Positions 13,854-35,987 of a DNA stretch of 40,971 bases are shown piece after piece. The notes beneath the pieces were generated by a model. It worked only from the letters and a program-made list of their open reading frames with translations, had not been told where the DNA came from and made no database searches. The DNA lies in assembly GCA_016198915.1 (NCBI GenBank), contig JACQHS010000110.1:1-40971 (forward strand), written 5' to 3'. Numbering within the stretch: the first letter of the stretch is position 1; every line of letters begins with the position of its first letter. The DNA is from Candidatus Omnitrophota bacterium (GTDB lineage Bacteria; Omnitrophota; Gorgyraeia; Aquiviventales; Aquiviventaceae). A program made the position numbers and the translations under genes.

Positions 13854-15053
13854 ATGCGCGTGTGTATTCTCTATCAGCATGATCCCACGGCGCACTACTC
13901 CGGGGGGATTGGGACGTTCATCAACACCTTCATCAAGTACGCCCCGGCGGACTTCGACATCAGCCTGGTGGGCGTCGCGGTGGATCCACGAGCCCACCCG
14001 GTGGGGGCATGGCATCGCGTGCGGGTCGCCGGACGCCCCGTCGAGTTCCTGCCGATCGTGGCGGCGCACCCCGCCCTGCGTGATCGGGTACCCTTGAGCC
14101 TGCGATACACGTGGGCCCTCAAGCGGTATTGGAAGACCATCAATGTGCGGGACGCCGTGATCGAGCTGCACCGCATCGAGCCGGGCCTCGCGCTCAAGGG
14201 CCTGACGAACCCCAAAATCCTGTTCCTGCATGTGCACCCGGAGGATCTGTGCAACCCCATGACCGAGGTGGCCTGGGGCCGGTGGTTTCCCTGGTTGTAT
14301 TTCTGGCTCGAGCGTCAACTGATCAAGGACATGGCGCGCGTCTTCCTCGTCCGGCAGGATGCGGTGGGCTGGTACCGGAACCGGTATCCAAACCTGGCGG
14401 AGCGGTTTTCGTTCTTGCCCACGTGGATGGACGAAGAGGTGTTCGTATCGCTGCCGGAGGGCGAGCGCCGTTGGCAGAAACAGGAGCTGGCCCGGGCCCA
14501 CGGGTTGGATCCGAATGACCGCCTGCTGTTGTTCGTGGGACGCTTCGAAGGGCAGAAGGACCCGCTGCGCCTGCTGCAGGCGTTCCGTCAGGTCAATGGG
14601 CGTGAGAACCACACGCGGCTGGTCATGATCGGTGAGGGGGCTTTGGAGGGGGAGATCCGTGGGTATCTGGCGGCTCATAGGTTGACAGGTCGAGTGAGCA
14701 TCGTCCGGCCGCAGCCCCAGTCCGAGATTGCGAAGTGGATGAACGCGGCCGACTGTCTGTGCTTGAGCTCGGCGTTCGAGGGGATGCCCCGCGTGGTGAT
14801 TGAGGCGCTGCGCTGCGGTCTTCCCGTCGTCTCGACGGCCGTGGGTGAGGTGCCGCGTGTCCTCACGACTGATCAGGCGGGACGGCTGGTCCGCGAGCGG
14901 ACCCCTGAAGCCTTGGGAGCGGCGATCGGTGAGGTCCTCAGGCAGCCGCCGGATCGGGAAGCCTGCCAGGAGCAGGGGGCCCCGTTCACGGCCAAGAAGA
15001 TTCTGGGACAGGTCTATGCCTCATATCGGACGCTGGGTCAGCAGGCCGGATGA
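13854..15053 (+). CDS. Glycosyltransferase family 4
   Basis: 'LLFVGRFEGQKDPLRLLQAF', 'LVMIGEGALEGEI' and 'LSSAFEGMPRVVIEALRCGLPVVSTAVGEVPRVL'. Confidence 0.85.
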   Translation: MRVCILYQHDPTAHYSGGIGTFINTFIKYAPADFDISLVGVAVDPRAHPVGAWHRVRVAGRPVEFLPIVAAHPALRDRVPLSLRYTWALKRYWKTINVRDAVIELHRIEPGLALKGLTNPKILFLHVHPEDLCNPMTEVAWGRWFPWLYFWLERQLIKDMARVFLVRQDAVGWYRNRYPNLAERFSFLPTWMDEEVFVSLPEGERRWQKQELARAHGLDPNDRLLLFVGRFEGQKDPLRLLQAFRQVNGRENHTRLVMIGEGALEGEIRGYLAAHRLTGRVSIVRPQPQSEIAKWMNAADCLCLSSAFEGMPRVVIEALRCGLPVVSTAVGEVPRVLTTDQAGRLVRERTPEALGAAIGEVLRQPPDREACQEQGAPFTAKKILGQVYASYRTLGQQAG

Positions 15054-15871
15054 CGATGCGCAGCGTTGAGCTGTTCGGCATGCCGTTTGAGAACGTCACC
15101 ATGCCGCAGGCCCTCGAGCGCATCGACGGATTGGTGCGGCAACCAGGGCGCCGCTACGTCATGACCCCAAATATCGATGCGGTCGTGCGGTGGCCGAAGG
15201 ATCCTGAGTTCCGCGACGCCTACCAGCGGGCGGCGCTCATCTTTGCCGACGGCATGCCTATCGTCCTGGCGAGTCGGCTGCTGGGCTCTCCCCTGAAGGA
15301 GCGGATTGCCGGCTCTGATCTGTTTCCAAGGCTCTGTCGGCAGGCCGCCGAGCGGGGCCACAGCGTGTTCTTCCTCGGAGGCCAAGATGGGGTGGCCGAA
15401 CAGGCCGCCCGGAACCTGCGGGGACGCTTTCCGTCCCTTCGGGTGGTGGGCTGCTATGCGCCGCCGATCGGATTTCAGTTCGATGCGGCTGAACACGAGC
15501 GGATGGTGCAGCGTGTCAATTCGGCGCGTCCCGATCTGTTGTTCCTTGCGCTGGGCTGCCCAAAGCAGGAGAAGTGGATTGCCAAGCACATCCACGAACT
15601 TGAGGTAAAGGTGGCGGTCTGTGTGGGCGCGGCGATTGACTTTGAGGCCGGCACCGTCAGGCGAGCGCCCCGCTGGATGCAGCGCAGCGGGCTGGAGTGG
15701 CTCTGGAGGCTTGTCCGTGAGCCTCGGCGCTTGTGGCGGCGGTACCTGATCGAGGACACGGCGTTTGTCGGCCTATTTCTCAGCGAGTGGTGGCGTGTGT
15801 GCGTCAGGCGAGCGGAAGCCGGCGGGCCCGTTGCGTCGTCAGGGCCACTGCGCAGCGGTGAATCATCATGA
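15050..15871 (+). CDS. WecB/TagA/CpsF-family glycosyltransferase (GT26)
   Basis: 'FADGMPIVLASRLLG', 'VFFLGGQDGVAEQAA', 'LFLALGCPKQEKWI' and 'GLEWLWRLVREPRRLWRRYL'. ATGA overlap at both ends. Confidence 0.85.
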   Translation: MTMRSVELFGMPFENVTMPQALERIDGLVRQPGRRYVMTPNIDAVVRWPKDPEFRDAYQRAALIFADGMPIVLASRLLGSPLKERIAGSDLFPRLCRQAAERGHSVFFLGGQDGVAEQAARNLRGRFPSLRVVGCYAPPIGFQFDAAEHERMVQRVNSARPDLLFLALGCPKQEKWIAKHIHELEVKVAVCVGAAIDFEAGTVRRAPRWMQRSGLEWLWRLVREPRRLWRRYLIEDTAFVGLFLSEWWRVCVRRAEAGGPVASSGPLRSGESS

Positions 15872-18003
15872 GAGGATTTAGCACCGCGTCCTCTTCGTCG
15901 ATGTCCGCCTCTGTGAGCGTGGCACAGATTCGGCGCTGGGTGGGCCTCACGGTCCTTGGCCTGGCCGGCGTGTGGGTCGTCTTCGCGCAGCTCGTCGCAC
16001 CCCAGGCGATTCAGGCGGCCTACCACGGTGAGGGGGCCTCCGTTTTGAGTCACATCATCCGAGAGCTCGGCCAGCCGCTGGATGAGCTCCTGTGGCGCTG
16101 GGGCATGCTCACCCAGGCGGTCGTGCTCGGCTGCCTCGGTCTGTGGCTGCTCGTCTGGGTGACCACGAGTCCCGGCTTCTTCAAGCGGTTTGTGGGAGAG
16201 GCCACGCCGGGGACCCTGGGGGCCATCCGGATGCTGACGTGCGGCATCCTGCTCCTCCACACCCTGTGGGAGGGGCTGGCGAGCACCGCGCTGCTTCCCA
16301 GGGAGATGATCAATACCCCCGGAGGTATCATGCGCGTGCTGGCCCTCCTGCCCATCGGGTTTGAGCGCTTCCTGGCTAACGAGACTGCGCTCGGAGTCTT
16401 CCAGTGGGTGACCGGGGCGCTGCTGTTCTTGGGCGCGATCGGTTGGAGGACGCGGATCACGGTTCCATTGGGCGCCGTGGGCTACCTGCTCATGGGGGGG
16501 ATCTTTCGCCTGTACGCGTGGTTCTACCACACGGGCGTGATCCCGGTGTACGTGATGGCGGTGCTCTCGCTGACGCCCTGCGGGGACGGGTGGTCGGTCG
16601 ATCGTCTGCGGAAAGTGGCCAGAGGAGCGCCGGTGCCTCCTGCCGATCGGGCCACCGCCGTCTACGGATGGGCTCGGTACGCGTGCTGGGTGGTGATTGC
16701 CCTGCCGTACCTGGCGGCTGGGATGAGCAAGCTTCGCAATAGCGGGCTGACGTGGTGGAATGCCACGAACATGAGGATCTTCCTGTACCGGGATACCCTC
16801 AACCCGATGGGGTTTGAGTCCGAGCTGTCCTTGCGGCTCACCTCAGCCCCCGATGCGGTATTTGCGGTGTTGGGTCTCGTCGGGCTTCTTGCTGAGCTCG
16901 TCTTCGTATCGGTCCTCTTCTCCCGCTGGGCCCGCCGGATCCTGCCGTTTGTGGCGGCCGGCATGCACGCAGGGATTTTCCTTCTGCAGAACATCCTGTT
17001 TCTGGATCTCATGCTGCTCCAGCTGGCGTTCATCGATTGGACCAGGATCCGCACGGCGGCTGGCCGGTGGCTCGAGGCCCACCGAGGGACCCTTGAGGTC
17101 CTTTACGATGGGCAGTGCCCGCTGTGCGTCCGGAGCGTCCGTCTGCTGGGTCCGCTCGATCTGTTCAATCGGTTGCGCTGGATTGATTTTCGGACGTTGA
17201 ACCTGACGGACTACAACGCCGGGCATGGCGTGAGGCTCACGTCGAGTGAGCTGGAACAAGCGATGGCCGTCGTGTCGCGGAGAAGGACGCGCCAAGGGTT
17301 TAAGGCCTGGAGGGCCATCGCGCAGGCGATTCCGGCAGGCTGGCTTGTGGCCCCCTGGCTCTACGTGCCGGGGATCCCCTGGCTGGGTGAGCGGGTCTAC
17401 CGGCGCGTGGCGCAGAGTCGCCACAAGCTCTTCAAGTGCGATGCGGCTTGCGCACACGAGGGCGAGGCGGCGCAGGGGCTCGCCCCGCAGCCGAGGAGAG
17501 CTCCCAACGCGCTGCGGGGTCCTCTGGTGGTGTCCGCGTCGGCCATCGTGTTGCTGCTGTGCTGGATCTACCGTGTGGAGGAGTATCCGCTCACCGCCCT
17601 GCAGATGTACACGAAGCCCACGACAGGGATCGCGGAGTACTACAAGGTTCTGGCGCACCGGGCCTCCGGCGAGACCGCCACCGCCCGCATCAAGGAGGCC
17701 ATCCCCGCGATGACCGACGGGCGCTATCGCCGGGTCATCCGGATGTGCTTCAAGCCGGACCAGGTGCAGGTGTGCGAGAAGTTTCTTGCCGCGTGCGGGG
17801 CGGCCTTCAACGCACAGGCTCGCGCCGGCGAACGGGTCACCCATCTCGAAATCCAGAAATGGGCGTGGGATGTCCGCGCTAATCCCTCGGACCCTGAACA
17901 TGGGCGGCTGGCCGACCGTTTTCTCTTCTCGCTGGAGTCGAAGAAGTCCGTGGAGGCGCAAACGCTGCTTGTAGCGTTCGACGAAGTCGGACAGCGCCAA
18001 TGA
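15868..18003 (+). CDS. Fusion protein: HTTM (vitamin-K-dependent gamma-carboxylase-like) membrane domain + DCC/DUF393 CxxC thiol-disulfide oxidoreductase + TM + unknown C-terminal domain
   Basis: HTTM-like 'LGAIRMLTCGILLL', 'LFLGAIGWRTRI', 'GDGWSVDRL' and 'YLAAGMSKL' match human GGCX 'LAVFRFLFGFLMVL', 'LGMMLGLCYRI', 'HYWSVDGL' and 'FIAGVKKL'. DCC module 'LEVLYDGQCPLCVRSVRLL...GERVYRRVAQSRHKLF' (CPLC codons 17116-17127). Confidence 0.7.
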   Translation: MRGFSTASSSSMSASVSVAQIRRWVGLTVLGLAGVWVVFAQLVAPQAIQAAYHGEGASVLSHIIRELGQPLDELLWRWGMLTQAVVLGCLGLWLLVWVTTSPGFFKRFVGEATPGTLGAIRMLTCGILLLHTLWEGLASTALLPREMINTPGGIMRVLALLPIGFERFLANETALGVFQWVTGALLFLGAIGWRTRITVPLGAVGYLLMGGIFRLYAWFYHTGVIPVYVMAVLSLTPCGDGWSVDRLRKVARGAPVPPADRATAVYGWARYACWVVIALPYLAAGMSKLRNSGLTWWNATNMRIFLYRDTLNPMGFESELSLRLTSAPDAVFAVLGLVGLLAELVFVSVLFSRWARRILPFVAAGMHAGIFLLQNILFLDLMLLQLAFIDWTRIRTAAGRWLEAHRGTLEVLYDGQCPLCVRSVRLLGPLDLFNRLRWIDFRTLNLTDYNAGHGVRLTSSELEQAMAVVSRRRTRQGFKAWRAIAQAIPAGWLVAPWLYVPGIPWLGERVYRRVAQSRHKLFKCDAACAHEGEAAQGLAPQPRRAPNALRGPLVVSASAIVLLLCWIYRVEEYPLTALQMYTKPTTGIAEYYKVLAHRASGETATARIKEAIPAMTDGRYRRVIRMCFKPDQVQVCEKFLAACGAAFNAQARAGERVTHLEIQKWAWDVRANPSDPEHGRLADRFLFSLESKKSVEAQTLLVAFDEVGQRQ

Positions 18004-19949
18004 GGTCGAAGGTGTGGCTTGCGGTGCGCATCGGTGCTGTGGTTGGGGCGCTGGTGGGAGCTGCGGAGTGCCTCGCGTTGCTCCTGCGGATCCCGTCGTG
18101 GCCACTCGATACCCCCACGATCCCGGTGGCCATGATGATCTACGGGTTCATTGCGGCAGTGATGGCTGGGGTGTGGGGACTGGCCGCGTGGCGTCGTCTG
18201 GATCATCAGACGTTTCAAGTCAGAACGGTGATGTGTACGCTGTTAGCCATGACCTATTTGCTTGGGGGCTATTGGATTCACCGATGGTGGTCGCCTCAGC
18301 TCCTGGCGCTTCCCAGCCTCCTGGTGACTGGGTTGTGGACCCTGGCGTGGCTGATCGGAAGCTGGATCTTGCTGAGGCCTCCTGGACGGCCTTCAGCCTC
18401 CTTTGAGACCAGTTGGGTCCGTCCCCTTCGAGGACTGATGCTCGGACTGCTCGTGGTCGCCGGTGCGTCACTGATGCTGCCCTCCCTGTGGATCAGGACC
18501 CATCAGGTCCTCGGCGCACGGGACGTTCCCGGGGGGACTCAACGCCCGAATATCCTGCTGATTGTGATGGACACCGCACGGGCCGACCGTTTCTCCTCCT
18601 ACGGCTACCACCGCAAGACAACCCCCAACCTTGATCGCCTGGCCCAGGACGGCGTGCTGTTCGAGCGCGCAAGCTCAGCAGCCCCTTGGACGTTGCCTTC
18701 ACACGCCACGCTCTTTACCGGGCTCTATCCAGCCCAGCATCAAGCGGAACGGCCGCATCCGCGCTTGGACAGTCGTTTCGCGACGCTGGCGGAGCTCTTG
18801 TACGACCACGGCTATCAGACCGCAGGTTTTTCGAATAACCACTGGGTCAGCCGAGAGATGAACTTTCACCAGGGGTTTGAGCACTTTGACGACATGCTGG
18901 ACGGCGGCCGGCTGATCAACCGGCTTGCGGTGGTGCGCGTCATGAAGAAGGTCACAGGGCTTGTGACTCGACGCCTCGACGACGGTGCGGAAGCGACTAA
19001 TCAAAGCGTCAGACGGTGGCTCAAGACGGTCTTCGATCCCGGCCGACCGTTCTTTGTCTTCATCAACTACCGTGAGCCGCATTTTCCCTACAAGCCGCCT
19101 GAGGCCTTCCGGAGCCGTTTCCTTCGACACCCACGCGAACCGGTGGAAAAGGTGCTTGAGGTTGCTGCGAGCCTCCATCGGTTCGCTCCGGCTGCCCATC
19201 AGGCCGCTCGTGTCGATCGGCCGATGCGGCAGCTCCTGAACGACCTCTACGACGGGGAGATCGCGTACCTGGATGCGAAGATTGGAGAGCTGTTAGGGGA
19301 GCTGGAGACCCGCCGGCTCCTCGACGATACCGTGGTCATTGTGACCAGCGACCACGGGGAGAACATCGGCGACCACGGGCTCTTCGGCCATCAGTTCTCC
19401 GTGTATGAAACCCTGCTGCACGTCCCCCTGGTCCTGCGCTACCCCGCCGGCTTGCCCGCCGGCAGGCGGGTGGCAGAGCGCGTCTCCCTGGTGGACCTGC
19501 TGCCCACCCTGATCGAACTCCTCTCCCTCGCGGCGCCGAGCCTTCAGGCGGCCCTGCCGGGTCACAGTTGGGTCGGTTCGTCCCTCGTCGTGGCGCCGGA
19601 CCTGCCCATCCGATCCGAGTATGCGGCTCCGGTTCCCATGCTGGCACGAAGCAGGACGCGGGGACAAGCGATCGACGAGCGTTCTTTCATGCGGAGCCTG
19701 AAGAGCCTTTCCCGTGGCGGCGTCAAGTTCATCTGGGCCTCCGACGGACACCATGAACTCTACGACCTGCGTCACGATCCCGGAGAATCGCAGAATGTCA
19801 TCCAGCAGTTTCCGGACACAGCGAGAGCGCTAAAGGCGGAGCTGGACCAGTGGTTGACGGCCATGCAGTCCGCAGGCACTCCGGAGGACGTCGAGCCGAT
19901 GAGGGAGTGGACGCGCAAGGAACTGCGAGCCCTGGGGTATCTCCAATGA
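18000..19949 (+). CDS. Membrane-anchored alkaline-phosphatase-superfamily (sulfatase-like) enzyme, Thr-nucleophile type, paralog 1
   Basis: N-terminal TM bundle, then 'NILLIVMDTARADRFSSYGY', 'APWTLPSHATLFTGLYP' (Thr codon 18690-18692) and 'VIVTSDHGENIGDHGLFGH'. ATGA overlaps at both ends. Confidence 0.8.
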   Translation: MRSKVWLAVRIGAVVGALVGAAECLALLLRIPSWPLDTPTIPVAMMIYGFIAAVMAGVWGLAAWRRLDHQTFQVRTVMCTLLAMTYLLGGYWIHRWWSPQLLALPSLLVTGLWTLAWLIGSWILLRPPGRPSASFETSWVRPLRGLMLGLLVVAGASLMLPSLWIRTHQVLGARDVPGGTQRPNILLIVMDTARADRFSSYGYHRKTTPNLDRLAQDGVLFERASSAAPWTLPSHATLFTGLYPAQHQAERPHPRLDSRFATLAELLYDHGYQTAGFSNNHWVSREMNFHQGFEHFDDMLDGGRLINRLAVVRVMKKVTGLVTRRLDDGAEATNQSVRRWLKTVFDPGRPFFVFINYREPHFPYKPPEAFRSRFLRHPREPVEKVLEVAASLHRFAPAAHQAARVDRPMRQLLNDLYDGEIAYLDAKIGELLGELETRRLLDDTVVIVTSDHGENIGDHGLFGHQFSVYETLLHVPLVLRYPAGLPAGRRVAERVSLVDLLPTLIELLSLAAPSLQAALPGHSWVGSSLVVAPDLPIRSEYAAPVPMLARSRTRGQAIDERSFMRSLKSLSRGGVKFIWASDGHHELYDLRHDPGESQNVIQQFPDTARALKAELDQWLTAMQSAGTPEDVEPMREWTRKELRALGYLQ

Positions 19950-21952
19950 GGGGAAGGACCTCAAGGGTCACAAAGGGTCTGAGCGGTTTCAGAACCTTCA
20001 GCGCTGCCCTGCTGCAAGGTGTGCTCTGCGGGATCGCGGTCGGATGGTTGACCGGGTTCTTGGAAGTCGTGGTGTTCTTGCCCAACCCCACAGGGACGGC
20101 TCACCACTTCCTCCTGCCCGCGATGCTGTTCTACAGCGTGGTCTGGTCGGTTGTGGCGTTGGCGTTCGGGGTGACGCTGTGGCTGGCGTGCCGGCTGTTC
20201 AATAGGCCGCTTCGGCCTGGCGAGCCTCTGACGCGCTGGTACCTGGCCGTGCTGATTCCCTTGGGGCTGTTCGTGATCGCCGGCGGGCATATCAACATGC
20301 GGTATCTTCCCTCCTTTACCGATGGGCGCTCCTTGCTCTTTGATGCCGTGTTTTTGGCGGCGAATGTGCTGCTGGGGTTGTGGCTCTATCGGCATGGGGT
20401 GGGGTGGGGATGGCGCTTCATCAGGAGGCCATCACGCAGGCTCTGGTGGGCGCTGAGCGCGGGAGGCGTGGCGATCGGCCTTGTGGCGGGCAGCGTGTTG
20501 CTCTGGGGAAGACCTCACGTGGCTCCAACGGTGCGGCCGGCGAGGGCGGATGCCGTCCCCAACGTGCTGTTGATTGCGATCGACGCCTTGCGGCCCGACC
20601 ACGTCTCCGCCTACGGCTATGAGCGGCGGACCACGCCCAGCCTCGATCAACTGGCGCGCGAGGGAGCGCGGTTCACCGAGGCCTACGCGAATTCATCCTG
20701 GACGAAGACCTCGGTGCCGACCATGTTGGCGTCGATCTACCCCTCGGCGCACAACGTGCATCACATGGCGTCCGGGGTGCCGGAATCCCTCTTGCTGCTG
20801 CCTGAGGTGCTGCAATTGCACGGCTATGCGACGGGGATCTTTTCGGCGAATTCCTTCGTCTCGCCGCTCTTTGGTTTTGACCAAGGGGTTGAGGAGTTCT
20901 ATCACGAAGACGTGTCGTTCTTCAAAAATCTGATGTTGGGCCACATCCTGGCGAGTTTGCGCCAGTACTCCCCAGCGATCACCTGGGTCTATCGGGGGCT
21001 GATAAATCTTGACCTGCCGGCGCCCTTTGGCAACCGGAGGAACATCGCAGCACCCGGCTTGAACAAGGCCTTGCTCGACTGGGTTCGCACGCTGGAGGGC
21101 CGGCCGTTCTTTGCGTACATGCATTACATGGAACCGCACACGCCGTACGCGCCGCCGGCGCCCTTCGACACCCTGTTTGATCCCGCGTACCGGCGTCCCT
21201 ATGAGACCGACGGCCCGATCTCTGAGGGCTTTGAGCCGTTTGAACGGAGCGACGCCCTCACTCCTCAACGGCGGCAGAACCTGATTGCGCAATATGACGG
21301 GGAGATCGCCTATGTCGATCAGATGATCGGTGAGCTGTTCCGGAGGCTCAAGGAGTTGGGGCTCTATGAGCGCACGGTGGTCATCATCACGGCGGACCAC
21401 GCGGAAACCTTCTACGAGCATGGCGGGTGGGGCCACGGAAAATCGCTCTTCAATGAGGTGCTGCGTGTGCCCCTCCTCATCCGCTACCCGACTGTCTTCC
21501 CGGCGGGCACGGTGGTGGAAGCGGTGGCCCGTCACGTGGACCTGATGCCGACGATCCTGGAACTCTGTTCGATTGCGCCGGCCGGCTTCATGGAGGGAAC
21601 GGGGCTGGTGTCCCTCGTGCAGGATCCGGAGGCGGCCGGCGACGCGAGGCCGGTGTACAGTGAACTCTTGCGACCGGCTCGGGGATCGTACGGACGGGCT
21701 GTGCAGGACGGCGACTTCAAGCTCATCGAAGTCCACACGCACGATGAGGAACGTTGGCTGCTGTTCGATCTTGCGCAGGACCCGGGGGAGCAACACCCGC
21801 TGGATGTGGAGGCGCATCCGATGGGCCCGCCCCTCAAGGAGCTCCTGGCCTCGTTTCAAGAACGGGCAGCGCGGATGGCGGTGGCCCCGAAGACCGTCAA
21901 GATCGATCGGGAGACACGGGATCGCCTGCGAGCCGTTGGCTACCTGCACTAG
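19946..21952 (+). CDS. Membrane-anchored AP-superfamily (sulfatase-like) enzyme, Thr type, paralog 2 (divergent)
   Basis: TM bundle, then 'NVLLIAIDALRPDHVSAYGY', 'SSWTKTSVPTMLASIYP' (Thr codon 20702-20704) and 'VIITADHAETFYEHGGWGHG'. ATG 19946 overlaps the upstream TGA. Confidence 0.8.
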   Translation: MRGRTSRVTKGLSGFRTFSAALLQGVLCGIAVGWLTGFLEVVVFLPNPTGTAHHFLLPAMLFYSVVWSVVALAFGVTLWLACRLFNRPLRPGEPLTRWYLAVLIPLGLFVIAGGHINMRYLPSFTDGRSLLFDAVFLAANVLLGLWLYRHGVGWGWRFIRRPSRRLWWALSAGGVAIGLVAGSVLLWGRPHVAPTVRPARADAVPNVLLIAIDALRPDHVSAYGYERRTTPSLDQLAREGARFTEAYANSSWTKTSVPTMLASIYPSAHNVHHMASGVPESLLLLPEVLQLHGYATGIFSANSFVSPLFGFDQGVEEFYHEDVSFFKNLMLGHILASLRQYSPAITWVYRGLINLDLPAPFGNRRNIAAPGLNKALLDWVRTLEGRPFFAYMHYMEPHTPYAPPAPFDTLFDPAYRRPYETDGPISEGFEPFERSDALTPQRRQNLIAQYDGEIAYVDQMIGELFRRLKELGLYERTVVIITADHAETFYEHGGWGHGKSLFNEVLRVPLLIRYPTVFPAGTVVEAVARHVDLMPTILELCSIAPAGFMEGTGLVSLVQDPEAAGDARPVYSELLRPARGSYGRAVQDGDFKLIEVHTHDEERWLLFDLAQDPGEQHPLDVEAHPMGPPLKELLASFQERAARMAVAPKTVKIDRETRDRLRAVGYLH

Positions 21953-21968
21953 AAACGCTGAGGATGGC

Positions 21969-23918
21969 ATGAGGCAGCAGTTGGTGGTGGCGATGACGAT
22001 CGGCGGAATGGTCGGGGCCTTCTGCGGGGCCGTCGAGGCGGGCGTGTTCTTGGTGCGCATCTCGTGGGGTCCTCTGGATACGCACACGATCGCCAAGGCG
22101 ATGGTGCTCTATGGACTGCCCAACGCGATCATCGTTGGGTTCTGGGGACTGGTCGCGGGGCGAGGGATGGATCTCAGGACGTTTGAGATCAGGACGCTGG
22201 CGTTCAGTCTCCTGACTATGGGCTATCTGTTCGGAGGGTTGTACGTGAACCGGCTGTGGCTGCCTGAGATCACGAAACTTCCGAGCCTGGTTTTCACCGG
22301 ATCCTGGACCCTCGCATGGCTGGCCGGCGCCTGGGCGCTGCTGAAGCTCCGCACACGCCCGGGGCACCCGCCCCGCACCGATCTTGCCTGGATCGGCGCT
22401 CTGCGGATGGCGGCGATCGGACTCGCCGTTGTGGCGGGGCTGTCGTTCGTGCCTCCGCTCCTGGCGGGCAGGCCCACCCGAGCTGGTGGCGCGGCGCCGA
22501 CCGTGCTGGGGCCTGCCGGGCGCCCGAACGTCCTGCTCATCGTGATGGACACCACGCGAGCCGACCGTTTGTCTTCGTACGGATATCCGCGCAACACGAC
22601 CCCGCATCTGGACCGCTTCGCCCAAGAGGGGGTCCTGTTCGAACAGGCGAGCGCGACGGCCCCGTGGACCCTGCCGTCGCATGCGTCGCTGTTCACCGGG
22701 CTGTATGTGGCCCAGCATGGAGCGGACACGTCGCACCGACGGCTCGATGATCACCTGGTCACGCTGGCTGAGCTGCTCCGCGAGCAGGGCTATCAGACGG
22801 TTGGCTTCTCCAACAATGGAGCCGTCAGCGTGGCGATGAACTTTCAGCAAGGGTTTGAGGTGTTCGAAGAGTCGCGCTTTTTCAGGGGGCAGGCGTTTAG
22901 GCAGCTCGCAATCGTTCGGCTCTTGGACCGATTTCAACTCCCGCAGCGCGGGGGCAACGCGCACGCCGCAGAGACCAACAAGCGCATCAGGGCCTGGTTC
23001 GAGCGCCGCTATGACCGCCGTCGGCCGTTCTTCCTGTTCATCAACTACATGGAGCCGCATTTTTCCTATGAGCCGCCTGAGCCGTACCGCAGGCGGTTCC
23101 TCCGACTGCCGAACGAGGTGAGGCGATCGCTCCGGAGGGGGCATGCGGTGATCAAGAGTCCCCCGCCGGTCTCCCTGGACGAGCCGATACGCGAAACCCT
23201 CGGGGACCTCTACGATGGGGAGCTTGCGTATCTCGATATGCGGATCGGCGAGCTGTTGGACGAGTTCAGGGCGCGCAAGCTGCTGGACGACACCGTAGTG
23301 ATCGTGACGAGCGACCACGGCGAGAACATCGGCCATCACGAAATTCTGGGGCATCACGACTGTGTGTACGAGACCCTGCTGCATGTTCCGCTGATCATCC
23401 GGTATCCGAAGGCGCTGCCGGCCGGTGCGCGGGTTGGCCAGCCCGTCTCGCTGGTGGATGTGCTGCCGACGCTACTCGCACTGCTGGAGGTGAGGGCCCC
23501 CGCCCTCGAGGCGTCGCTGCCGGGCTACAGCTTCGTGGGGTCCGGCTTGGCGGTGCGGGAGGATCGGGTCATCCTGTCCGAGTACGAGATCGCACGTCTC
23601 GGGCCGCAGGGCGCCGGGGGGTCGGGACGGACGAATGCAACAGCGGATGCGACGGCGACGGCGAAGCTGAAGAGTCTACGTGAGGGCGCGCTCAAGTTCA
23701 TCCGGTCGCCAGACGGGCGGCATGAGCTCTATGACCTCGAGCGGGATCCGGCCGAGTCGCGCAACCTGATCGCAGAGTTGCCAGGGCAGGCGGCGGCGAT
23801 GGAGGCGAAGCTCGTGAGACACTTCAAGGCCCTGAAGCCGGTCGGCTCACCCGAGCCGGTGCCTGAGCTCGATGCGGTGACGCGCGAGCAGCTCAGAGCG
23901 CTTGGGTATCTTCATTGA
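21969..23918 (+). CDS. Membrane-anchored AP-superfamily (sulfatase-like) enzyme, Thr type, paralog 3 (close to paralog 1)
   Basis: 'NVLLIVMDTTRADRLSSYGY', 'APWTLPSHASLFTGLYV' (Thr codon 22668-22670) and 'VIVTSDHGENIGHHEILGH'. GAGGA at 21960-21964 precedes ATG 21969. Confidence 0.8.
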   Translation: MRQQLVVAMTIGGMVGAFCGAVEAGVFLVRISWGPLDTHTIAKAMVLYGLPNAIIVGFWGLVAGRGMDLRTFEIRTLAFSLLTMGYLFGGLYVNRLWLPEITKLPSLVFTGSWTLAWLAGAWALLKLRTRPGHPPRTDLAWIGALRMAAIGLAVVAGLSFVPPLLAGRPTRAGGAAPTVLGPAGRPNVLLIVMDTTRADRLSSYGYPRNTTPHLDRFAQEGVLFEQASATAPWTLPSHASLFTGLYVAQHGADTSHRRLDDHLVTLAELLREQGYQTVGFSNNGAVSVAMNFQQGFEVFEESRFFRGQAFRQLAIVRLLDRFQLPQRGGNAHAAETNKRIRAWFERRYDRRRPFFLFINYMEPHFSYEPPEPYRRRFLRLPNEVRRSLRRGHAVIKSPPPVSLDEPIRETLGDLYDGELAYLDMRIGELLDEFRARKLLDDTVVIVTSDHGENIGHHEILGHHDCVYETLLHVPLIIRYPKALPAGARVGQPVSLVDVLPTLLALLEVRAPALEASLPGYSFVGSGLAVREDRVILSEYEIARLGPQGAGGSGRTNATADATATAKLKSLREGALKFIRSPDGRHELYDLERDPAESRNLIAELPGQAAAMEAKLVRHFKALKPVGSPEPVPELDAVTREQLRALGYLH

Positions 23919-23929
23919 GGAAACCACTG

Positions 23930-26900
23930 ATGGTAGCTGAGCGTATCCGAGGAGCGGCAAGCGAAGTCGCAGGGATCTCCGCGAGGCCTCTGCGGCTCGT
24001 GATGATGGCGCTGGTCTGCGCGTTGGTGAGCATCGGGTTCGGCGGCGACTCGAGCGCGGCTTTGGCGGTTCAGGATGCGCTTACCAATGGTGGGTTCGAA
24101 CATCCCGAGGACGGTGCGCAGAGCCCGGAGGGCTGGGAAGTTGGGGGGCGGACGGAGCGCGTCGAGTCCTCCGCGGATGGTGGGGGGGCATGGGCGTTGC
24201 GGCTGTCCTCCACAACGGAGGAGCCGAATCCGAGGGCGTCGCAATCGCTGGACGTTGTCCAGCCGCTTGCGACGGCGGTCACGGTGGCGGGCCTGGTGAG
24301 GATCAAGGATGTGCATCCCATCGGTGACGGGAAGGGCGCCGCCAAGGTCACCGTCAGCTTCTTGTCGGTGGATGGCCGCGTGATCCGTCGCAAGACGATC
24401 CGAACATGGGATGGCACGTTCGGCTGGCGCCCGTGGTCCGGCTCCGTGCGCATCCCGAAGGGCGCCGGCCGGCTTGAGCTCGCGCTCGAGCTGGAGGAGG
24501 CCCTGGGACAGGCCACATTCGATGCCGTGCAGCTGCTGTGGGGCCTGCCGGACGACCATGACCGCGAGAACCTCGTCGTCGATGGCGGGTTCGAGTATGT
24601 GAACCCCCTGTCGGTCTGGGAACTGGATCAGGGAGCGAAAGTGGTGTATCCCGGCGCCGAAGGCCATGCCGCATTGGAGATTTCACGGGACCAACCCGGG
24701 CACGCTGCCGCCCGTCAGCGGCTCGTGTTCGCTGAGGCGTCGATCCGGGAGGCGACACTCACGTTTGACCTCAAGCTGAAGAAGGTCAAGGCACGAGCGC
24801 CCGGGGGAGGCGCGAAGGTGGAGCTGGGCTTCTGGGATCGTGAAGGCGAGCCCGTGGGGAAGCCGGTTGTGGTGGGTCCATGGGCAGGGACACAGGAGAC
24901 TTGGAAGTCGCGCGCCAAACAAGTGCGGGTTCCGCCTGCGGCAAGCGAGGCGACGCTGGGTCTGTTGCTGGATCAGGCGCGCGGAACGGCCTGGTTCGAT
25001 GGGGTGCGGCTGGCGGCGCACGGGGCCGAGGGGCCGCTGGTGCGTCGTCTGGAGTCCCGAACGGACATCGCGACCTGGAGAGTCATTGAGCCCAGCATCG
25101 GACCCTTGGAGCCGCCGTTTGATGCGAGCGGGTTGCTCAATCCGCCCGCGGGGCAGCACGGATTCCTGACCGTGGAGGACGGCCGTTTTGTCTTCGAGGA
25201 CGGGACACCCGCGCGCTTCTTCGGCGTCAATATTGACGCGGCCGCCAACTTCCCGAGCCATGAGCACGCTGACCGCTTCGCCGAGCGGCTGGCGCAGCTT
25301 GGGTGCAACCTCGTGCGGCTGCATCATCTGGATGCCCCGTGGGCCGACCCCAACATCTTCGCTGCCGAATTCGAGGACACCCAGCATCTCTCGCGCGAGA
25401 GCCTGGACCGGCTTGACTACTTCATCGCGCAGCTCAAGGCGCGGGGGATCTACATCTACATGGATCTGTTGGTCAGCCGCCAGTTCAAGTCCGGGGATGG
25501 CGTGCCGGCCTACCGGCAGCTCTCGCGAGGGGCGAAGATCGCCGCCCAGTACAGCCCGCGGCTGATTCAGCTGCAGAAGGCGTATGCGCGCGATCTGCTC
25601 ACCCACTATAACCGGTACACGCGGACGCGGCTGGTCGAGGAGCCGGCGCTCGTCCTGGTTGACCTGATCAACGAGAGTTCGCTCGCGGCTGACTCGAAGC
25701 GGTTCAAGGAGCTCCCAGGGCCCTACCGCGATGAGCTGCAGCTGCTCTGGGGGGAATATCTGTCCGGTCAGGGCGTGGATCGCGCCACGATGGACGCGGA
25801 GCGCTATCTTGAAGTCGACGATCCGTTCGTGCAGGGATTCTACACGAACCTCCAGCAGCGCTACTTTGACGAGCTGTACGGCTACCTCCGCGGGCTCGGG
25901 CTTTCGATTCCGATTGCGGGAAGCAACCGCAGCACCCTGTCGCTGAGGACCTGGGAGCTTGCGACCAACGCCACACTGGATTTCATTGATCGGCATGACT
26001 ACTGGGACCATCCGAAGGGCGGGTACGGGGACCTGGTGCGATTCCACAATCGCTCGATGATCGAAGGCGGCCAGGAGCACCATCCGATCGCCAAGCTGAG
26101 TGTACAGCGTGTGGCGGGCGTGCCGTTCGTGGTGAGCGAGTGGAACATCCCCTGGCCCAATGAGTACCGGGCGGTCGGTCCCCTCCTCATGGCGGCCTAT
26201 GCCTCATTTCAGAATTGGGACGGCCTACTCCTCTTCACCTACGATGGGGATCTCGCCGCCACGCGAATCGCGAATAACTTTGATGTCAGTACAATGCCGG
26301 AGCAGTTCCTGCAGCTTCCAGCCGCAGCTCGGCTCTTCCACCGCCGAGAGGTCCAGCCGGCGCGTCTCACTCGCGCGTATCCCATCGACGCAGAGCACCA
26401 GAGCATCAGCCCGGGGCTTCCGCTTCGGCACGGTGTAGCGCGCGTTGCGGGGGATGCCGCACCACCCAAAGCGCTGGCCATGGCGAGCAACCCCTGGGTG
26501 AGCGATACCGGCGAGCTGGCCTGGGATGAACGGCACGGGCGCGTCTCGATCAAGACGGCTCGTGTACAAGCCGTTGTCGGACAGATGGGGGACGGACCGC
26601 TGTCGCTTCCTGATGCGACGTTCTCGGTGGAGACGCCTTTTGCCTCCGTGGTGCTCTCGAGCCTGGATGAGCAGCCGGTCGTGAGCTCGCGGCACCTGTT
26701 GCTGACGACGGTCGCGCGATCGGAGAACACCGGGACGGTCTATAACGCGACGCGGACGCTGCTGCGGGACAGCGGCACGGGCCCTATCCTCATGGAGCCG
26801 GTGATGGGCTCCGTATCCATGCCGCTGGGCGGGCGTCGACCGACCGGGGTGTTTGCGCTGGATACCACTGGACGCCGGGTGAGCGAGGTGGCGGCTTCCG

Positions 26901-26974
26901 TGCGTGAGGGCTCGATCGAGGTGCCGCTGGGCGAAGCCCTCGCCTATGAAATCGTGTTTGAGGAGCCCTCATGA
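23930..26974 (+). CDS. Secreted multidomain glycoside hydrolase (two CBM-like modules + clan GH-A TIM-barrel-like domain)
   Basis: Signal peptide 'LRLVMMALVCALVSIGFGGDSSAALA'. Two 'NGGFE'/'DGGFE' jelly-roll-type modules. 'GFLTVEDGRFVFEDGTPARFFGVN...LGCNLVRLHHLD', 'LINESS' (candidate acid/base NE) and 'FVVSEWN' (candidate nucleophile). ATG 23930 lies 8 nt after GAGGA. The track start 23915 is a TTG. Confidence 0.65.
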   Translation: MVAERIRGAASEVAGISARPLRLVMMALVCALVSIGFGGDSSAALAVQDALTNGGFEHPEDGAQSPEGWEVGGRTERVESSADGGGAWALRLSSTTEEPNPRASQSLDVVQPLATAVTVAGLVRIKDVHPIGDGKGAAKVTVSFLSVDGRVIRRKTIRTWDGTFGWRPWSGSVRIPKGAGRLELALELEEALGQATFDAVQLLWGLPDDHDRENLVVDGGFEYVNPLSVWELDQGAKVVYPGAEGHAALEISRDQPGHAAARQRLVFAEASIREATLTFDLKLKKVKARAPGGGAKVELGFWDREGEPVGKPVVVGPWAGTQETWKSRAKQVRVPPAASEATLGLLLDQARGTAWFDGVRLAAHGAEGPLVRRLESRTDIATWRVIEPSIGPLEPPFDASGLLNPPAGQHGFLTVEDGRFVFEDGTPARFFGVNIDAAANFPSHEHADRFAERLAQLGCNLVRLHHLDAPWADPNIFAAEFEDTQHLSRESLDRLDYFIAQLKARGIYIYMDLLVSRQFKSGDGVPAYRQLSRGAKIAAQYSPRLIQLQKAYARDLLTHYNRYTRTRLVEEPALVLVDLINESSLAADSKRFKELPGPYRDELQLLWGEYLSGQGVDRATMDAERYLEVDDPFVQGFYTNLQQRYFDELYGYLRGLGLSIPIAGSNRSTLSLRTWELATNATLDFIDRHDYWDHPKGGYGDLVRFHNRSMIEGGQEHHPIAKLSVQRVAGVPFVVSEWNIPWPNEYRAVGPLLMAAYASFQNWDGLLLFTYDGDLAATRIANNFDVSTMPEQFLQLPAAARLFHRREVQPARLTRAYPIDAEHQSISPGLPLRHGVARVAGDAAPPKALAMASNPWVSDTGELAWDERHGRVSIKTARVQAVVGQMGDGPLSLPDATFSVETPFASVVLSSLDEQPVVSSRHLLLTTVARSENTGTVYNATRTLLRDSGTGPILMEPVMGSVSMPLGGRRPTGVFALDTTGRRVSEVAASVREGSIEVPLGEALAYEIVFEEPS

Positions 26975-28422
26975 TCAAACGCTCAGAGGTGTTCGTCAAA
27001 CAGCTCGTGCTGCTAATCGATCTGGCGGTTCTGGTGGTGGCGTTTCTCGCCACCTATGCCCTCCGACAGTCGGTTCAGACGTTCTATCTGCTGGACCTCA
27101 TTCCCGGCCGCGAGGCGATCGGCGAGCTCTATCCGCTGGATCGCTACCTCTGGTTGTTGCTGATCATCCTGCCGCTCTGGATTGGCATACTCTACGCGCT
27201 GGGCGGCTACCGGGAGCTTCGCAACAAATCGTACCGTCAGATTGCGGCGGTGGTGCTGAAGGCCTGCGCGTTGGGACTGCTGTTCTTCGGCTCCTTCGTC
27301 TTTGTCTTGAAGCTCCATTATGTCAGCCGACTCTTCATGGGGATGTTTTTCCTGCTCAGCTTCCTGCTGCTGGCGTACGAGCGGACGGTCGTGATCGTGT
27401 GTTTCCATCTCATGCTGCAGCGGGGGTACTTCCATCGGAATCTCCTCCTAGTGGGGACGGGCCGGCGCGCCCGCGCGGTCATCAAGGATATCCAGGGCCA
27501 CCAGAACTGGGGGGTCGGGTTTGTCGGACTCCTCGATGCCGATCCGGGCATGGTGGAGCAGCACGTGGAGGGTGTCGAGGTCATCGGCACCCTGGAGGAG
27601 CTGCCCCGCATGCTGCAGGAGCGCGTCATCGATGAGGTGGTCTTCGTCGTACCGCGGACCTGGATGGCCAGGATTGAGGAAGCGATCCGCGCCTGCGAGC
27701 TGGCGGGTGTGCGGGCCTCGGTGGCGGTGGATCTGTTCAACATGCGCTTTGCCAAATCGCATCCCTCCGCCCTCAATGGCACGCCGTTCATCAGCTTCGA
27801 TACGACGTCGACGGATCAATGGCAGGTCGCGCTCAAGCGCGTGCTCGACGTGGTGATCGCGGGCCTCGGCCTCGTGGTCCTGTTGCCGCTGTTTGTGGTG
27901 GTCAGCCTGCTGATCAAGGCGACCTCCTCGGGCCCCGTGCTGTTCCAGCAGGTGCGGTGCGGGCTCAACGGTCGTCGGTTTACCCTCTACAAGTTCCGCT
28001 CAATGGTCATGGATGCGGAGGCGAAGCGAGCGGAACTGGCGCACCTGAACGAGCTCAACGGCCCGGTCTTCAAGCTGACCAACGATCCGCGCCTGACGCC
28101 GGTCGGCCGCTGGCTGCGGAAGATGAGCCTCGACGAGTTGCCTCAGCTGTACAACGTCTTCAAGGGGGAGATGAGCCTGGTGGGACCGCGACCGCCCATC
28201 CCGGGCGAGGTGGAGCAGTATCAAGCCTGGCAGCGCAGGCGGCTCAGCATGCGACCGGGGATCACCGGCCAATGGCAGGTGAACGGCCGCAATCATATCG
28301 TGGACTTTGACAAATGGATGCGGCTGGACCTCGAGTACATCGATCGGTGGTCTCTGGCGCTCGATGTGAAGATTCTGGCCAAGACGATCCCGGCGGTGTT
28401 CTTCGGGGTCGGGGCCAAATAG
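26971..28422 (+). CDS. Polyprenyl-phosphate sugar phosphotransferase (WbaP-type priming enzyme, bacterial sugar transferase family)
   Basis: N-terminal TMs plus a central Rossmann-like region. 'RVLDVVIAGLGLVVLLPLFVV', 'GPVLFQQVRCGLNGRRFTLYKFRSM', 'DELPQLYNVFKGEMSLVGPRPP' and 'RPGITGQWQV'. Confidence 0.9.
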   Translation: MIKRSEVFVKQLVLLIDLAVLVVAFLATYALRQSVQTFYLLDLIPGREAIGELYPLDRYLWLLLIILPLWIGILYALGGYRELRNKSYRQIAAVVLKACALGLLFFGSFVFVLKLHYVSRLFMGMFFLLSFLLLAYERTVVIVCFHLMLQRGYFHRNLLLVGTGRRARAVIKDIQGHQNWGVGFVGLLDADPGMVEQHVEGVEVIGTLEELPRMLQERVIDEVVFVVPRTWMARIEEAIRACELAGVRASVAVDLFNMRFAKSHPSALNGTPFISFDTTSTDQWQVALKRVLDVVIAGLGLVVLLPLFVVVSLLIKATSSGPVLFQQVRCGLNGRRFTLYKFRSMVMDAEAKRAELAHLNELNGPVFKLTNDPRLTPVGRWLRKMSLDELPQLYNVFKGEMSLVGPRPPIPGEVEQYQAWQRRRLSMRPGITGQWQVNGRNHIVDFDKWMRLDLEYIDRWSLALDVKILAKTIPAVFFGVGAK

Positions 28423-32394: not shown

Positions 32395-32473
32395 CTGGAA
32401 GGACCCCGAGCTCCTCGAGCGGATGGGCTCGGCGCTCGTGCATCGCGGCCCGGATATGGGCGTGCGCACATGA
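32372..32473 (+). pseudogene. 5' relic (33 codons) of a glutamine-hydrolysing asparagine synthase (AsnB-type Ntn amidotransferase)
   Basis: '[33 protein letters not shown]' has the obligatory N-terminal Met-Cys-Gly-Ile and the 'HRGPD' motif, then stops. It overlaps the SDR gene 3' end and the next gene start (ATGA). Confidence 0.6.
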
Positions 32474-33468
32474 AACAGCGAGTGAAACGCGGCATCTTCT
32501 TGGCGGTGGGTCTTGGGATCATCGTGGCGATCCTCGCCGAGGCGGATCTGGAGACGCTGGGATCGATCCTGGCCCAGACGGATCCCAGGTTTCTGGGTCT
32601 TGGGATTGCGCTCTCGCTGATTCAGCCGGTGCTGGCGACGTCTCGGTGGCATCTGCTGCTCCGACATAAAGGGATCGAAGTGCCATTCTGGCGGCTGGTC
32701 TCGACGTACATGATCGGCTTCTCGATTTCCTCGTTCCTGCCGAGCAAGTACAGCGGGGACGTGTACAAGACCTACACCGTGGCCAAAGACTCCGGCAGGG
32801 TCTACGACTCTGTGGCGTCGGTGCTGCTCTACCGGCTCTCTGGTTTCTTTGTGATGTGCGTGCTGGGGGTGCTCGCAGCGGCCGTGGGCCTGGCACTCTT
32901 CGATGAGCGGGGGATGACGCTGACGATTCTGGCGATCTCGCTTGCCCTGGTCATCGCGACGTACACCGTGTTCAGCCAGGGGGCCTTCCATGTCCTCGAG
33001 ACGCTGCTCAGGCTCCTCCGACTCGACATGCTCCGACGGCCGGCTGAGAAGCTCCACACGGCGGTCCTGGAGTACCGGGGCGAAACGCGCCTGGTGGTGA
33101 AGCTGCTGTGGCTTGCGCTCCTGTTCTATCTGGAAGCCTACGTCATCGTGTTTGCCGCGGTGCAGGCGGTCGGCGCCGAGGTCTCCTTCGCCTACGTGGT
33201 GCTCGTCGTCCCCATGATCTACCTGCTGGAGGCGTTGCCCGTCTCCGTCAGCGGGCTCGGGGTCCGGGAGGGGGCGTTTGTGTTCTTCTTCACGAAGCCC
33301 GGGCTTGGATGGGAGCGCGCAGTCGCCATTTCGCTGGTCGTGCTATTCTTCCGGCTGGTGAAGGCGCTCGTCGGGGGTGCGCTCTTCCTTGTGCGGTACG
33401 TCGCAATCCGAAAGGTTCGGGCGATGGAGCGCCGGCCCGTTGCAGTCCCCGAAGGGAGCCGAGGATGA
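32470..33468 (+). CDS. Flippase-like membrane protein (UPF0104 / lysyl-PG-synthase TM-region family)
   Basis: 8 TM-like segments. '[46 protein letters not shown]' resembles the family RW...G(G)D motif region. Confidence 0.6.
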
Positions 33469-34049
33469 CCCGGGCCACGCTCTGGAGGCTGCTCGGACGC
33501 TATGCGGTGCCATGCGCAGTCCGGAGTCTCTACTACGCCGTGAGGTTTCGGTGTCTCGTGAGCCTTCGAGCGGATGTGCAGCTCTCCTCCCGCATCCGGC
33601 TGGGCCGGGGGAGCGATATCCGGCCCTACGCCCGGATCATCAACGGCACGGGCTCGATCATCCTGGGGCGGCGCTGCGGCATCAGCAGCTTCACCTATCT
33701 GGCCAACGGCTCAGCGTTCATTCGGATCGGCGACGGCGTGCGGATCGGCCCGCACGTCTACCTCGGGTCATCCAACCGGGGTTTCGAGGATCCCAATACG
33801 CCGATCCTCGACCAGGAGAAAAGCGAGCAAGGCATCGTCATCGAGGATGACGTGTGGGTCGGCGCTCACGTGGTCGTGTTGGACGGGGTGCGCATCGGCC
33901 GGGGATCCGTCATCGGGGCGGGGGCCATCGTGACGCGGGACATCCCGCCGTTGTCCATCGCGGTGGGCAACCCCGCGCGGGTGATTCGTCAACGCGGCGA
34001 CCGGCCCCAGGTGCGCGCGGGCCGGCCCGCTGAGCAGGTCTTGCGATGA
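33465..34049 (+). CDS. Hexapeptide-repeat (LbH) O-acetyltransferase
   Basis: '[15 protein letters not shown]...[49 protein letters not shown]'. ATGA overlaps at both ends. Confidence 0.85.
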
Positions 34050-35979: not shown

Positions 35980-35987
35980 TTAAGAAC

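Follow-up and report, generated by a model that had tools for sequence, protein, structure and literature searches.

The window, by which the whole stretch of DNA analyzed here is meant, has a GC content of about 65% and makes up a complete contig (40,971 bp) in a metagenome-assembled genome of Candidatus Omnitrophica. It carries a generic exopolysaccharide (EPS) operon of the Wzx/Wzy type. Five genes of this operon, called g1 to g5 below, lie between a WecG-type glycosyltransferase (WecG) and the priming transferase of the pathway (PGT). In related loci, a frame that ends in WecG, a slot, g5 and the PGT is conserved, and it is the slot, filled by g1 to g4 in the window, that varies. The g5 gene and the PGT gene constitute the conserved skeleton and are inherited together. 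The g5 protein, modelled as a clan GH-A enzyme with intact catalytic residues, is most plausibly a glycanase that belongs to the locus itself. By analogy with characterized enzymes, g2, g3 and g4, which are membrane-anchored members of the alkaline phosphatase (AP) superfamily, are most likely periplasmic phospho-group transferases. There is, in our estimate, about an even chance that these genes form a modification part of the EPS operon in two layers, in which g5 would trim the cell's own polymer, g2 to g4 would transfer phospho-groups and g1 would have an accessory role. The domain content, the conserved catalytic residues, the transmembrane anchoring and the recurrent co-localization that underlie this reading are observed.

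Close orthologs of g5 (44-55% identity) were found on ten other informative loci, giving 11 loci with the window. These loci are mutually divergent: their g5 proteins are 41-55% identical pairwise and their GC contents range from 48 to 70%. The PGT gene directly follows a g5-family gene in L003, L004, L006, L090, L092, L096, L169 and L172, and also on the short contigs L088, L089, L093, L095 and L138. WecG stands ahead of the slot in L001, L090, L092, L169, L172 and L173. A transmembrane AP enzyme is encoded within 10 kb of g5 in nine of the 11 loci (the window, L001, L003, L006, L090, L092, L096, L169 and L172), and relatives of g1 are present in the window, L001, L006 and L172, as well as in L168, a contig that lacks g5. 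Further DCC-containing relatives occur in L003, L090 and L172. The sample of loci anchored on g1 is small and is partly biased by the route through which the loci were discovered.

The AP enzymes fall into two types, A (g2 and g4) and B (g3), and their arrangement differs from locus to locus. Between WecG and the g5-PGT pair, L090 has a single type B enzyme, L092 has type B followed by type A, and L169 has one type A and two type B enzymes in that order; in L090 a DCC protein is encoded after the PGT. The slot of L172 contains type A, g1 (with its N-terminal and C-terminal domains), type B, a PF01663 gene and an Acyl_transf_3 gene, then g5, the PGT and a DCC protein, so that all five families are present. 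In L001, WecG is followed by g1 (N-terminal and C-terminal domains, no DCC domain), type B and g5 and, after intervening genes, by an HTTM gene and the PGT. L006 has the order g1, Alg14/13, type A, APH, PF01663, g5 and PGT, and L003 the order sulfotransferases, type A, Fic, g5, DCC protein, g5 paralog and PGT. In L096, a WecG::g5 fusion is followed by the PGT, a flippase and type B. Two loci lack both AP enzymes and g1: L004, in which glycosyltransferases, a sulfotransferase and a methyltransferase precede g5 and the PGT, and L173, in which only a methyltransferase separates WecG from g5 and the PGT. On the short contig L168, g1 is accompanied by type A, type B, APH and the PGT. The acyltransferase, methyltransferase, sulfotransferase, APH kinase and PF01663 genes found in the slot elsewhere are typical glycan-tailoring functions.

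Copy number, gene order and domain composition thus all differ among loci for the families of g1 to g4. The differences in order, such as type B lying beyond the PGT and a flippase in L096 and the A-B-B series of L169, argue against plain inherited synteny. None of the partners was seen in any of about 140 loci with more distant g5 homologs from many phyla, showing that the association is specific to this clade of g5. The first-pass annotation of the window had proposed that the five genes might be a coherent system for modification and trimming after export, an idea that would fall if the genes were never found together elsewhere. The families do recur together in other, divergent polysaccharide loci; nevertheless, they are not one five-gene unit, because g5 travels with the PGT without g1 or AP enzymes in L004 and L173.

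WecG, g1 to g5 and the PGT are encoded on the plus strand, as are almost all genes of the window. The g2 gene (18000..19949) encodes a type A enzyme that matches PF00884 (E 1.2e-49) and PF01663 (2.6e-16). Its nucleophile is Thr231 (nucleotides (nt) 18690-18692), within the motif WTLPSH, its metal ligands include D191 and D451/H452, and its C-terminus reads LRALGYLQ. The g3 gene (19946..21952; PF00884 7.8e-51) encodes the type B enzyme, which has Thr253 (nt 20702-20704) within SSWTKTSV and the further motifs DALRPDH and TADH..GWGHG. The second type A enzyme, g4 (21969..23918; PF00884 7.9e-53), is 52% identical to g2 and has Thr234 (nt 22668-22670) within WTLPSH. All three score 170-180 bits with PF00884, the fold of which also covers LtaS/EptA-type enzymes, at a cut-off of 25; their PF01663 matches are weaker (1e-11 to 1e-16). 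Of the 18 full-length type A and type B proteins from nine loci, 17 retain the nucleophilic threonine along with the D, D-H and H ligands of the metal site. Type A proteins share the signatures DTxRADR, WT[LFV]PSH and SDHGE, and type B proteins the signatures DALRPDH, SSWT[KR]ASV and TADHGEEF..GWGHG. Type B is a separate group of orthologs, since g3 scores about 200 bits with g2 and g4 but 580-930 bits with type B proteins of other loci. The wider family of WTxPSH ectodomains has 3272 matches at E <1e-10, and T-x-P-x-H is found in 87 of the 120 that were listed.

The topology of all proteins was read from hydropathy. In g3 there are five N-terminal transmembrane helices, and the charge bias (positive-inside rule) places the N-terminus inside and the catalytic domain outside. 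In g2 and g4, three to four helices exceed the threshold and weaker ones accompany them. For g2 to g5, action outside the cytoplasm is the natural interpretation. All type A and type B enzymes also end in a shared motif, L[RK]ALGY[LVI]x, which lies at 19923-19946, 21926-21949 and 23892-23915 in the window and is found at the C-terminus in L001, L003, L006, L090, L092, L096, L168, L169 and L171. This motif may be a structural strand or a tag for interaction or sorting.

Among solved structures, S1 sulfatases are the closest relatives of the AP enzymes (E 2e-31 in a search of the PDB), with which g2 to g4 share the overall fold and the best scores. Upon alignment of g2 with choline sulfatase 7oz8, however, a threonine takes the position of the formylglycine residue (C/S-x-P-x-R), W-T-L-P-S-H standing opposite S-T-P-A-R. 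The lysine and histidine of GKxH-type motifs in S1 sulfatases bind the sulfate group. The lysine of this motif in choline sulfatase (GKMHW) is aligned with an asparagine in g2 (GFSNNHW), and type B enzymes have SAN[SA]F there. To judge by these substitutions at the formylglycine and lysine positions, g2 to g4 are not formylglycine sulfatases. The claim of the first-pass annotation that the locus encodes three ectoenzymes of the AP superfamily with threonine nucleophiles is borne out by the PF00884 matches, the threonine at the formylglycine position and the N-terminal transmembrane helices.

The three proteins have the architecture of lipid-head-group transferases without belonging to any curated family of that class. 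Models of EptA, CptA, MCR, YejM and LtaS give them 15-56 bits, as compared with curated cut-offs of 400-1250, and a Pfam scan of their transmembrane domains found no family, EptA_B_N included. Like EptA/MCR-1, LtaS, OpgB and GacH, they combine a multi-helix N-terminal domain with an extracytoplasmic AP fold, a threonine nucleophile and a site built of D/E, D-H and H. They differ from these enzymes in having their own signatures, WT[LF]PSH and SSWT[KR]ASV, and a transmembrane domain without a Pfam match. A preprint (bioRxiv 10.64898/2026.09.23.753746) describes as an established class the membrane-anchored members of the AP superfamily that transfer phospholipid head groups to glycans.

The conserved hydrolase g5 (HY353_04450; 23930..26974) is a protein of 1014 amino acids (aa) with a signal peptide or signal anchor. 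Its N-terminus consists of a charged stretch, a hydrophobic segment (about 15 residues; aa 21-39) and an A-L-A site. An AlphaFold (AF2) model, built from 16 homologs, has a pLDDT of 84.8 and a pTM of 0.84. In this model, two CBM4/9/22-like beta-sandwiches (about aa 50-365), for which Foldseek found the tandem CBM22 structure 4xup, are followed by a clan GH-A (beta/alpha)8 barrel (about aa 400-810) and by C-terminal beta-sandwiches. The best Foldseek matches include GH2 enzymes (E 2.7e-16) and the GH5 enzyme 8gf3 (TM-score 0.70, normalized to the target). A profile search of the PDB found GH5 mannanases (E 1.6e-5) over the region of the NE residues and a CBM-like match at the N-terminus (6.6e-9). 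The predicted acid/base pair N581-E582 (nt 25670-25675) comes after the strand 574-578 (strand 4), and the predicted nucleophile E737 (nt 26138-26140) is situated at the end of the strand 733-737 (strand 7), as would be required of a GH-A enzyme; N581, E582 and E737 are invariant in the 16 homologs. Pfam gave nothing above threshold for g5 itself (PF00150, E 0.21); some homologs carry precomputed PF00150 or PF02449 annotations. The hydrophobic N-terminus, the tandem CBM-like modules, the barrel and the intact catalytic residues agree with the earlier description of g5 as a large secreted hydrolase with CBM and GH-A parts.

In L096 (9077-13003), WecG and g5 are fused in frame into a protein of 1309 aa, without a stop codon and joined through the hydrophobic segment. 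The fusion indicates that g5 can be anchored beside a cytoplasmic glycosyltransferase, which suits an anchor with the N-terminus in and the C-terminus out, and that direct adjacency of WecG and g5 is the empty state of the slot. In L003 (6057-15227) there are two g5 paralogs, of 990 and 1478 aa, with a small open reading frame and a DCC1-like protein between them; this locus also holds two sulfotransferases and a Fic protein.

The g1 gene (15868..18003) encodes a polytopic membrane protein of 711 aa. Its DCC1-like thioredoxin-fold domain (PF04134/DUF393; aa 411-523, nt 17098-17436) is a firm assignment at the sequence level: the match has an E-value of 1.3e-20 and 75 bits against a cut-off of 27.8, it is found in all of 25 homologs, and C417 and C420 of the DxxCxxC motif (YDGQCPLC at nt 17104-17127) are invariant. 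The HTTM/LMF1-like character of the preceding transmembrane domain (about aa 100-400) is weakly supported, as is its likeness to GGCX. LMF1 (PF06762) matches g1 with 14.5-16.6 bits at a cut-off of 27 and is below threshold in the five of 25 homologs in which it appears (best E 6e-4). An hhalign comparison of g1 with one PF05090 protein gave a P-value of 8e-4 and a probability of 25%. GGCX was the top Foldseek match (E 0.037), a mere hint in view of the poor model (pLDDT 63), and sequence and profile searches of the PDB with g1 gave nothing meaningful and no GGCX. WSVD (nt 16588-16608), K288 (nt 16729-16731) and H367 are invariant, the PF05090 protein included, and columns with S-x-D, Lys, Trp and His are common to the g1 family and that protein. 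These columns are reminiscent of WSVD and KKL in human GGCX, which gives a lead rather than a test. Of the HTTM-CxxC fusion recognized in the first-pass annotation, the CxxC part is therefore a DCC1 domain and only the HTTM part is in doubt.

After the DCC1 domain, g1 has another transmembrane helix (about aa 549-572) and then a C-terminal alpha/beta domain of about 130 aa, as seen from hydropathy and the model. Because this helix lies between them, the DCC and C-terminal domains must be on opposite sides of the membrane; the charge bias did not settle which domain faces which side. The earlier statement that all five proteins act outside the cytoplasm is thus natural for g2 to g5 but is not confirmed for g1. 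According to the prediction of a preprint (bioRxiv 10.64898/2026.08.19.745780), a GGCX-like fold with a pocket for menaquinol is rebuilt in bacteria by two proteins, one of the HTTM+DCC1 type and a DUF5819 partner that consists of a transmembrane helix and a domain of roughly 160 aa. In g1, a polytopic HTTM-like domain with WSxD, Lys and His is likewise joined to DCC1, a fusion already known from bacteria, and the protein ends, like the predicted partner, in a transmembrane helix and a small domain. It could be a fused form of the two proteins. Unlike in that system, the HTTM domain of g1 is below the Pfam threshold, its C-terminal domain matches neither DUF5819 nor any Pfam family, there is no evident peptide substrate, and g1 is encoded among genes for polysaccharide synthesis rather than for the maturation of peptides or polyketides.

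More than 470 homologs of g1 were found, most of those listed being full length. The protein has 12 cysteines, nine of them conserved in at least 90% of the homologs. A role for g1 in making disulfides in g2 to g5 was considered and rejected, given that these proteins are nearly free of cysteine outside their membrane segments. The g1 family also has a second recurrent context, a Dlt-like ABC-transporter setting: in L007 (4368-13404) and L170 (4006-14420), full-length homologs lie beside Wzm and Wzt or between them, in the company of an esterification set of AMP-binding, small carrier-protein-like (ACP) and MBOAT genes. L171 (8684-16128) is a Wzm/Wzt glycan locus with a g1 homolog, two type A genes and an AlgX/GDSL-like protein. 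The type A pair in L171 consists of an intact enzyme of 434 aa beside a 626-aa paralog lacking the threonine (PWA-PAH).

The two-layer organization can be pictured as follows. In the first layer, the conserved skeleton, g5 with its CBM-like modules would be either exported or tethered to the outer face of the inner membrane and would cleave the cell's own polymer, in order to trim the chain length, to release the polymer or to clear polymer that has been mis-exported, as do PslG, BcsZ and ExoK. In the second layer, the variable slot between WecG and g5, the type A enzymes g2 and g4 and the type B enzyme g3, with their threonine nucleophiles and lost formylglycine motif, would take groups linked through phosphate, such as phosphoethanolamine or glycerol phosphate, from membrane lipids and attach them to the glycan on the periplasmic side, as do BcsG, EptA, OpgB, LtaS and GacH. 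The substrate, the donor, the direction of the reaction (transfer or hydrolysis) and any effect on the polymer are inferred. The g1 protein, the orientation of which is also inferred, would be an accessory GGCX-like or thioredoxin-like membrane redox protein.

Several observations weigh against this proposal. The ectodomains of g2 to g4 are nearer in sequence to S1 sulfatases (2e-31) than to EptA, LtaS and YejM (1e-8 to 1e-15). Their transmembrane domains match no known family, so that the case for transferase activity is purely architectural. There are very many soluble relatives of about 470 aa with a WTxPSH-type motif, which would suit a family of hydrolases. The g5 gene is kept without an AP enzyme or g1 in two loci (L004 and L173), and L169 has three AP enzymes without g1, showing that the parts are not strictly interdependent. 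The proposal also depends on three large families without a characterized member, namely the WTxPSH AP enzymes (more than 3000 relatives at E <1e-10), the GH-A proteins with CBM-like modules and the HTTM-like/DCC1 proteins of about 700 aa; if it is correct, each of them would gain a testable role.

It is unlikely, though worth serious weight, that the AP enzymes are instead periplasmic phosphodiesterases, hydrolases that would release the polymer from undecaprenyl pyrophosphate, remove phospho-substituents or cleave phosphodiesters within the repeat unit. Hundreds of soluble relatives with the same motif, the PF01663 matches and the presence of PF01663 proteins in the same slot in L006 and L172 are in keeping with such a role. 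So are the motifs D-x-x-R-x-D and T-x-P-x-H-x-x-x-x-T-G-x-Y-P, which we take to resemble those of nucleotide pyrophosphatases/phosphodiesterases. However, a membrane domain of five helices fused to an AP fold is the hallmark of transferases with lipid donors (EptA, LtaS, OpgB and BcsG), and three paralogs of two conserved types suit different decorations better than a single release step. That g2 to g4 are true sulfatases editing a sulfated EPS is extremely unlikely. Sulfatases are the top matches in Pfam, the PDB and NCBIfam, and L003 and L004 have sulfotransferase genes, but in place of the C/S-x-P-x-R motif all orthologs have T-x-P-x-H or T-[KR]-A-S-V, and asparagine stands where choline sulfatase has the lysine of GKMHW. 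Moreover, the Pfam and NCBIfam scans found no sulfotransferase gene in the window, and L004, which has one, has no AP enzyme.

It is rather improbable that no functional module exists at all and that the co-localization merely reflects the common descent of one clade of EPS loci, with g1 to g4 being independent genes in a slot prone to recombination. The restriction of the partners to the close g5 clade, the variable content of the slot, the two loci without g1 to g4 and the tight packing of the whole cluster are in keeping with this. The families have nevertheless been kept together despite deep divergence (41-55% identity, GC 48-70%) and rearrangement, and g1 relatives and type A enzymes also meet in another type of pathway, the Wzm/Wzt locus L171. 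The adjacency of g1 relatives to type A or type B enzymes in the window, L001, L006, L168, L172 and the unrelated ABC locus L171, along with the conserved cysteines of g1, has suggested another arrangement, in which g1 would be a GGCX-like, quinone- and thiol-dependent membrane enzyme that helps or matures the AP enzymes, either modifying or supplying them, comparable to sulfatase/maturase pairs. This is very unlikely: AP enzymes occur without a full g1 in L169, L092 and L003, the g1 homologs of L007 and L170 have no AP enzyme within 10 kb, and the cysteine-poor ectodomains of g2 to g5 make a disulfide role improbable. A broader proposal, that g1 and the threonine-type AP enzymes form an unrecognized glycan-modification system in both Wzx/Wzy and ABC-transporter pathways, must be called speculative. 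Here g1 would carry out a new quinone- or thiol-driven chemistry on the surface polysaccharide or its substituents, such as vitamin-K-type carboxylation or oxidation, or would mature the AP enzymes. New chemistry is most likely to come from the repeated association of a GGCX-like protein with loci for surface glycans.

By analogy, the two-layer organization would follow a known logic, in which periplasmic decoration is combined with a glycanase encoded in the locus (BcsG and BcsZ, alginate, Pel, osmoregulated periplasmic glucans (OPG), GacH), and the new part would be the uncharacterized families. The combination had at first been held to be unlike any described system. This does not stand at the level of function, for which BcsG with BcsZ, the periplasmic modification of alginate and Pel, and OPG decoration are precedents; a literature search found no paper describing this gene combination. 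As with the phosphoethanolamine transferase BcsG and the periplasmic GH8 endoglucanase BcsZ, a membrane-anchored AP enzyme and a glycoside hydrolase, both predicted to act on the polymer outside the cytoplasm, are encoded within a polysaccharide operon. The enterobacterial cellulose system is, however, synthase-dependent, whereas the window has the Wzx/Wzy type. BcsG has a serine nucleophile and is of another sequence family, in contrast to the threonine of the window enzymes. BcsZ belongs to GH8 and not to clan GH-A, and the window adds three AP paralogs of two types and a redox membrane protein. As a probable exported or anchored glycanase for the polymer of its own EPS locus, g5 resembles PslG of Pseudomonas Psl (GH39, clan GH-A), with which it shares the barrel and the NE and E residues, and the ExoK and ExsH enzymes of succinoglycan. 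It differs from PslG and ExoK/ExsH in being much larger, with two CBM-like modules and C-terminal beta-sandwiches, in being assigned here to no Pfam or CAZy family and in its consistent place beside the PGT. The locus as a whole is reminiscent of O-antigen and capsule loci, which have a conserved frame for export and priming and a variable central region that serves as a lineage-specific tailoring slot. In those loci the region contains mainly glycosyltransferases and sugar-nucleotide genes, whereas the slot described here is occupied by extracytoplasmic AP enzymes and an HTTM-like protein.

If the proposal is correct, these three families would make up a tailoring toolkit for the EPS of uncultured groundwater and sediment bacteria. 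It would also be a warning to annotators that these "sulfatases" cannot be formylglycine sulfatases.

Pfam and NCBIfam matches confirm the gene order originally given for the window, namely export, polymerase, flippase, five glycosyltransferases, the five-gene block and a WbaP-type primer. Upstream of the block there are a FecR-like fragment, a BBP2_2 outer-membrane barrel, a Wza-like exporter, a Wzc-like tyrosine autokinase, a Wzy_C+TPR protein, a second Wzy_C protein, a Wzx-type flippase, and GT2, GT4, GT9-like, GT4 and WecG glycosyltransferases. WecG (15050..15871; WecG/TagA/CpsF family, PF03808 E 2.6e-71) forms the upstream border of the variable slot. It is followed by g1 to g5 and by the WbaP/EPS-type PGT (26971..28422), a transferase of hexose 1-phosphate to polyprenyl phosphate with 420 bits in TIGR03025 (cut-off 296) and 5.4e-69 in PF02397. 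On the 3' side of the PGT there are a GlpD-like oxidoreductase, more glycosyltransferases, an epimerase, a flippase-like LPG_synthase_TM protein, a hexapeptide acyltransferase, two GT2 proteins and a PF01663 protein. A classification as a PEP-CTERM/XrtA locus was considered and rejected: none of the TIGR030xx PEP-CTERM models reaches its cut-off, whereas TIGR03025, the generic EPS_sugtrans model, does, and no exosortase turned up in the window.

The junctions of the block are tight, as had been noted from the start. ATGA overlaps are found at 15868 (WecG/g1), 18000 (g1/g2), 19946 (g2/g3) and 26971 (g5/PGT). Gaps of 16 nt between g3 and g4 and of 11 nt between g4 and g5 complete the series, with GAGGA preceding the ATG codons of g4 (21969) and g5 (23930); an alternative TTG start of g5 at 23915 would give a TTGA overlap. 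The entire gene array, from 749 to at least 30161, is equally packed, with gaps of at most 96 nt and many 4-nt overlaps, so that the tight packing is a property of the whole cluster and the overlaps are not special to the block. A scan for promoters and terminators found nothing above chance inside the block.

The GlpD-like FAD oxidoreductase (DAO+DAO_C; 28440-30161) starts 17 nt after the PGT; with the model for glycerol-3-phosphate dehydrogenase it reaches 240 bits, short of the cut-off of 360. As related loci do not keep it 3' of the PGT, it was left out of the system, and any connection with glycerol-phosphate chemistry is only a guess. A possible second modification set lies at 32470-37226 and consists of the LPG_synthase_TM protein, the hexapeptide acyltransferase, the two GT2 proteins and the phosphodiesterase-like PF01663 protein, for which there was no NCBIfam match. 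The two Wzy_C (O-antigen-ligase-like) proteins are encoded in tandem at 5416-9518, the first being fused to TPR repeats. This pair is kept in L001, L006 and L173, where the first member also has a CBM60 match.

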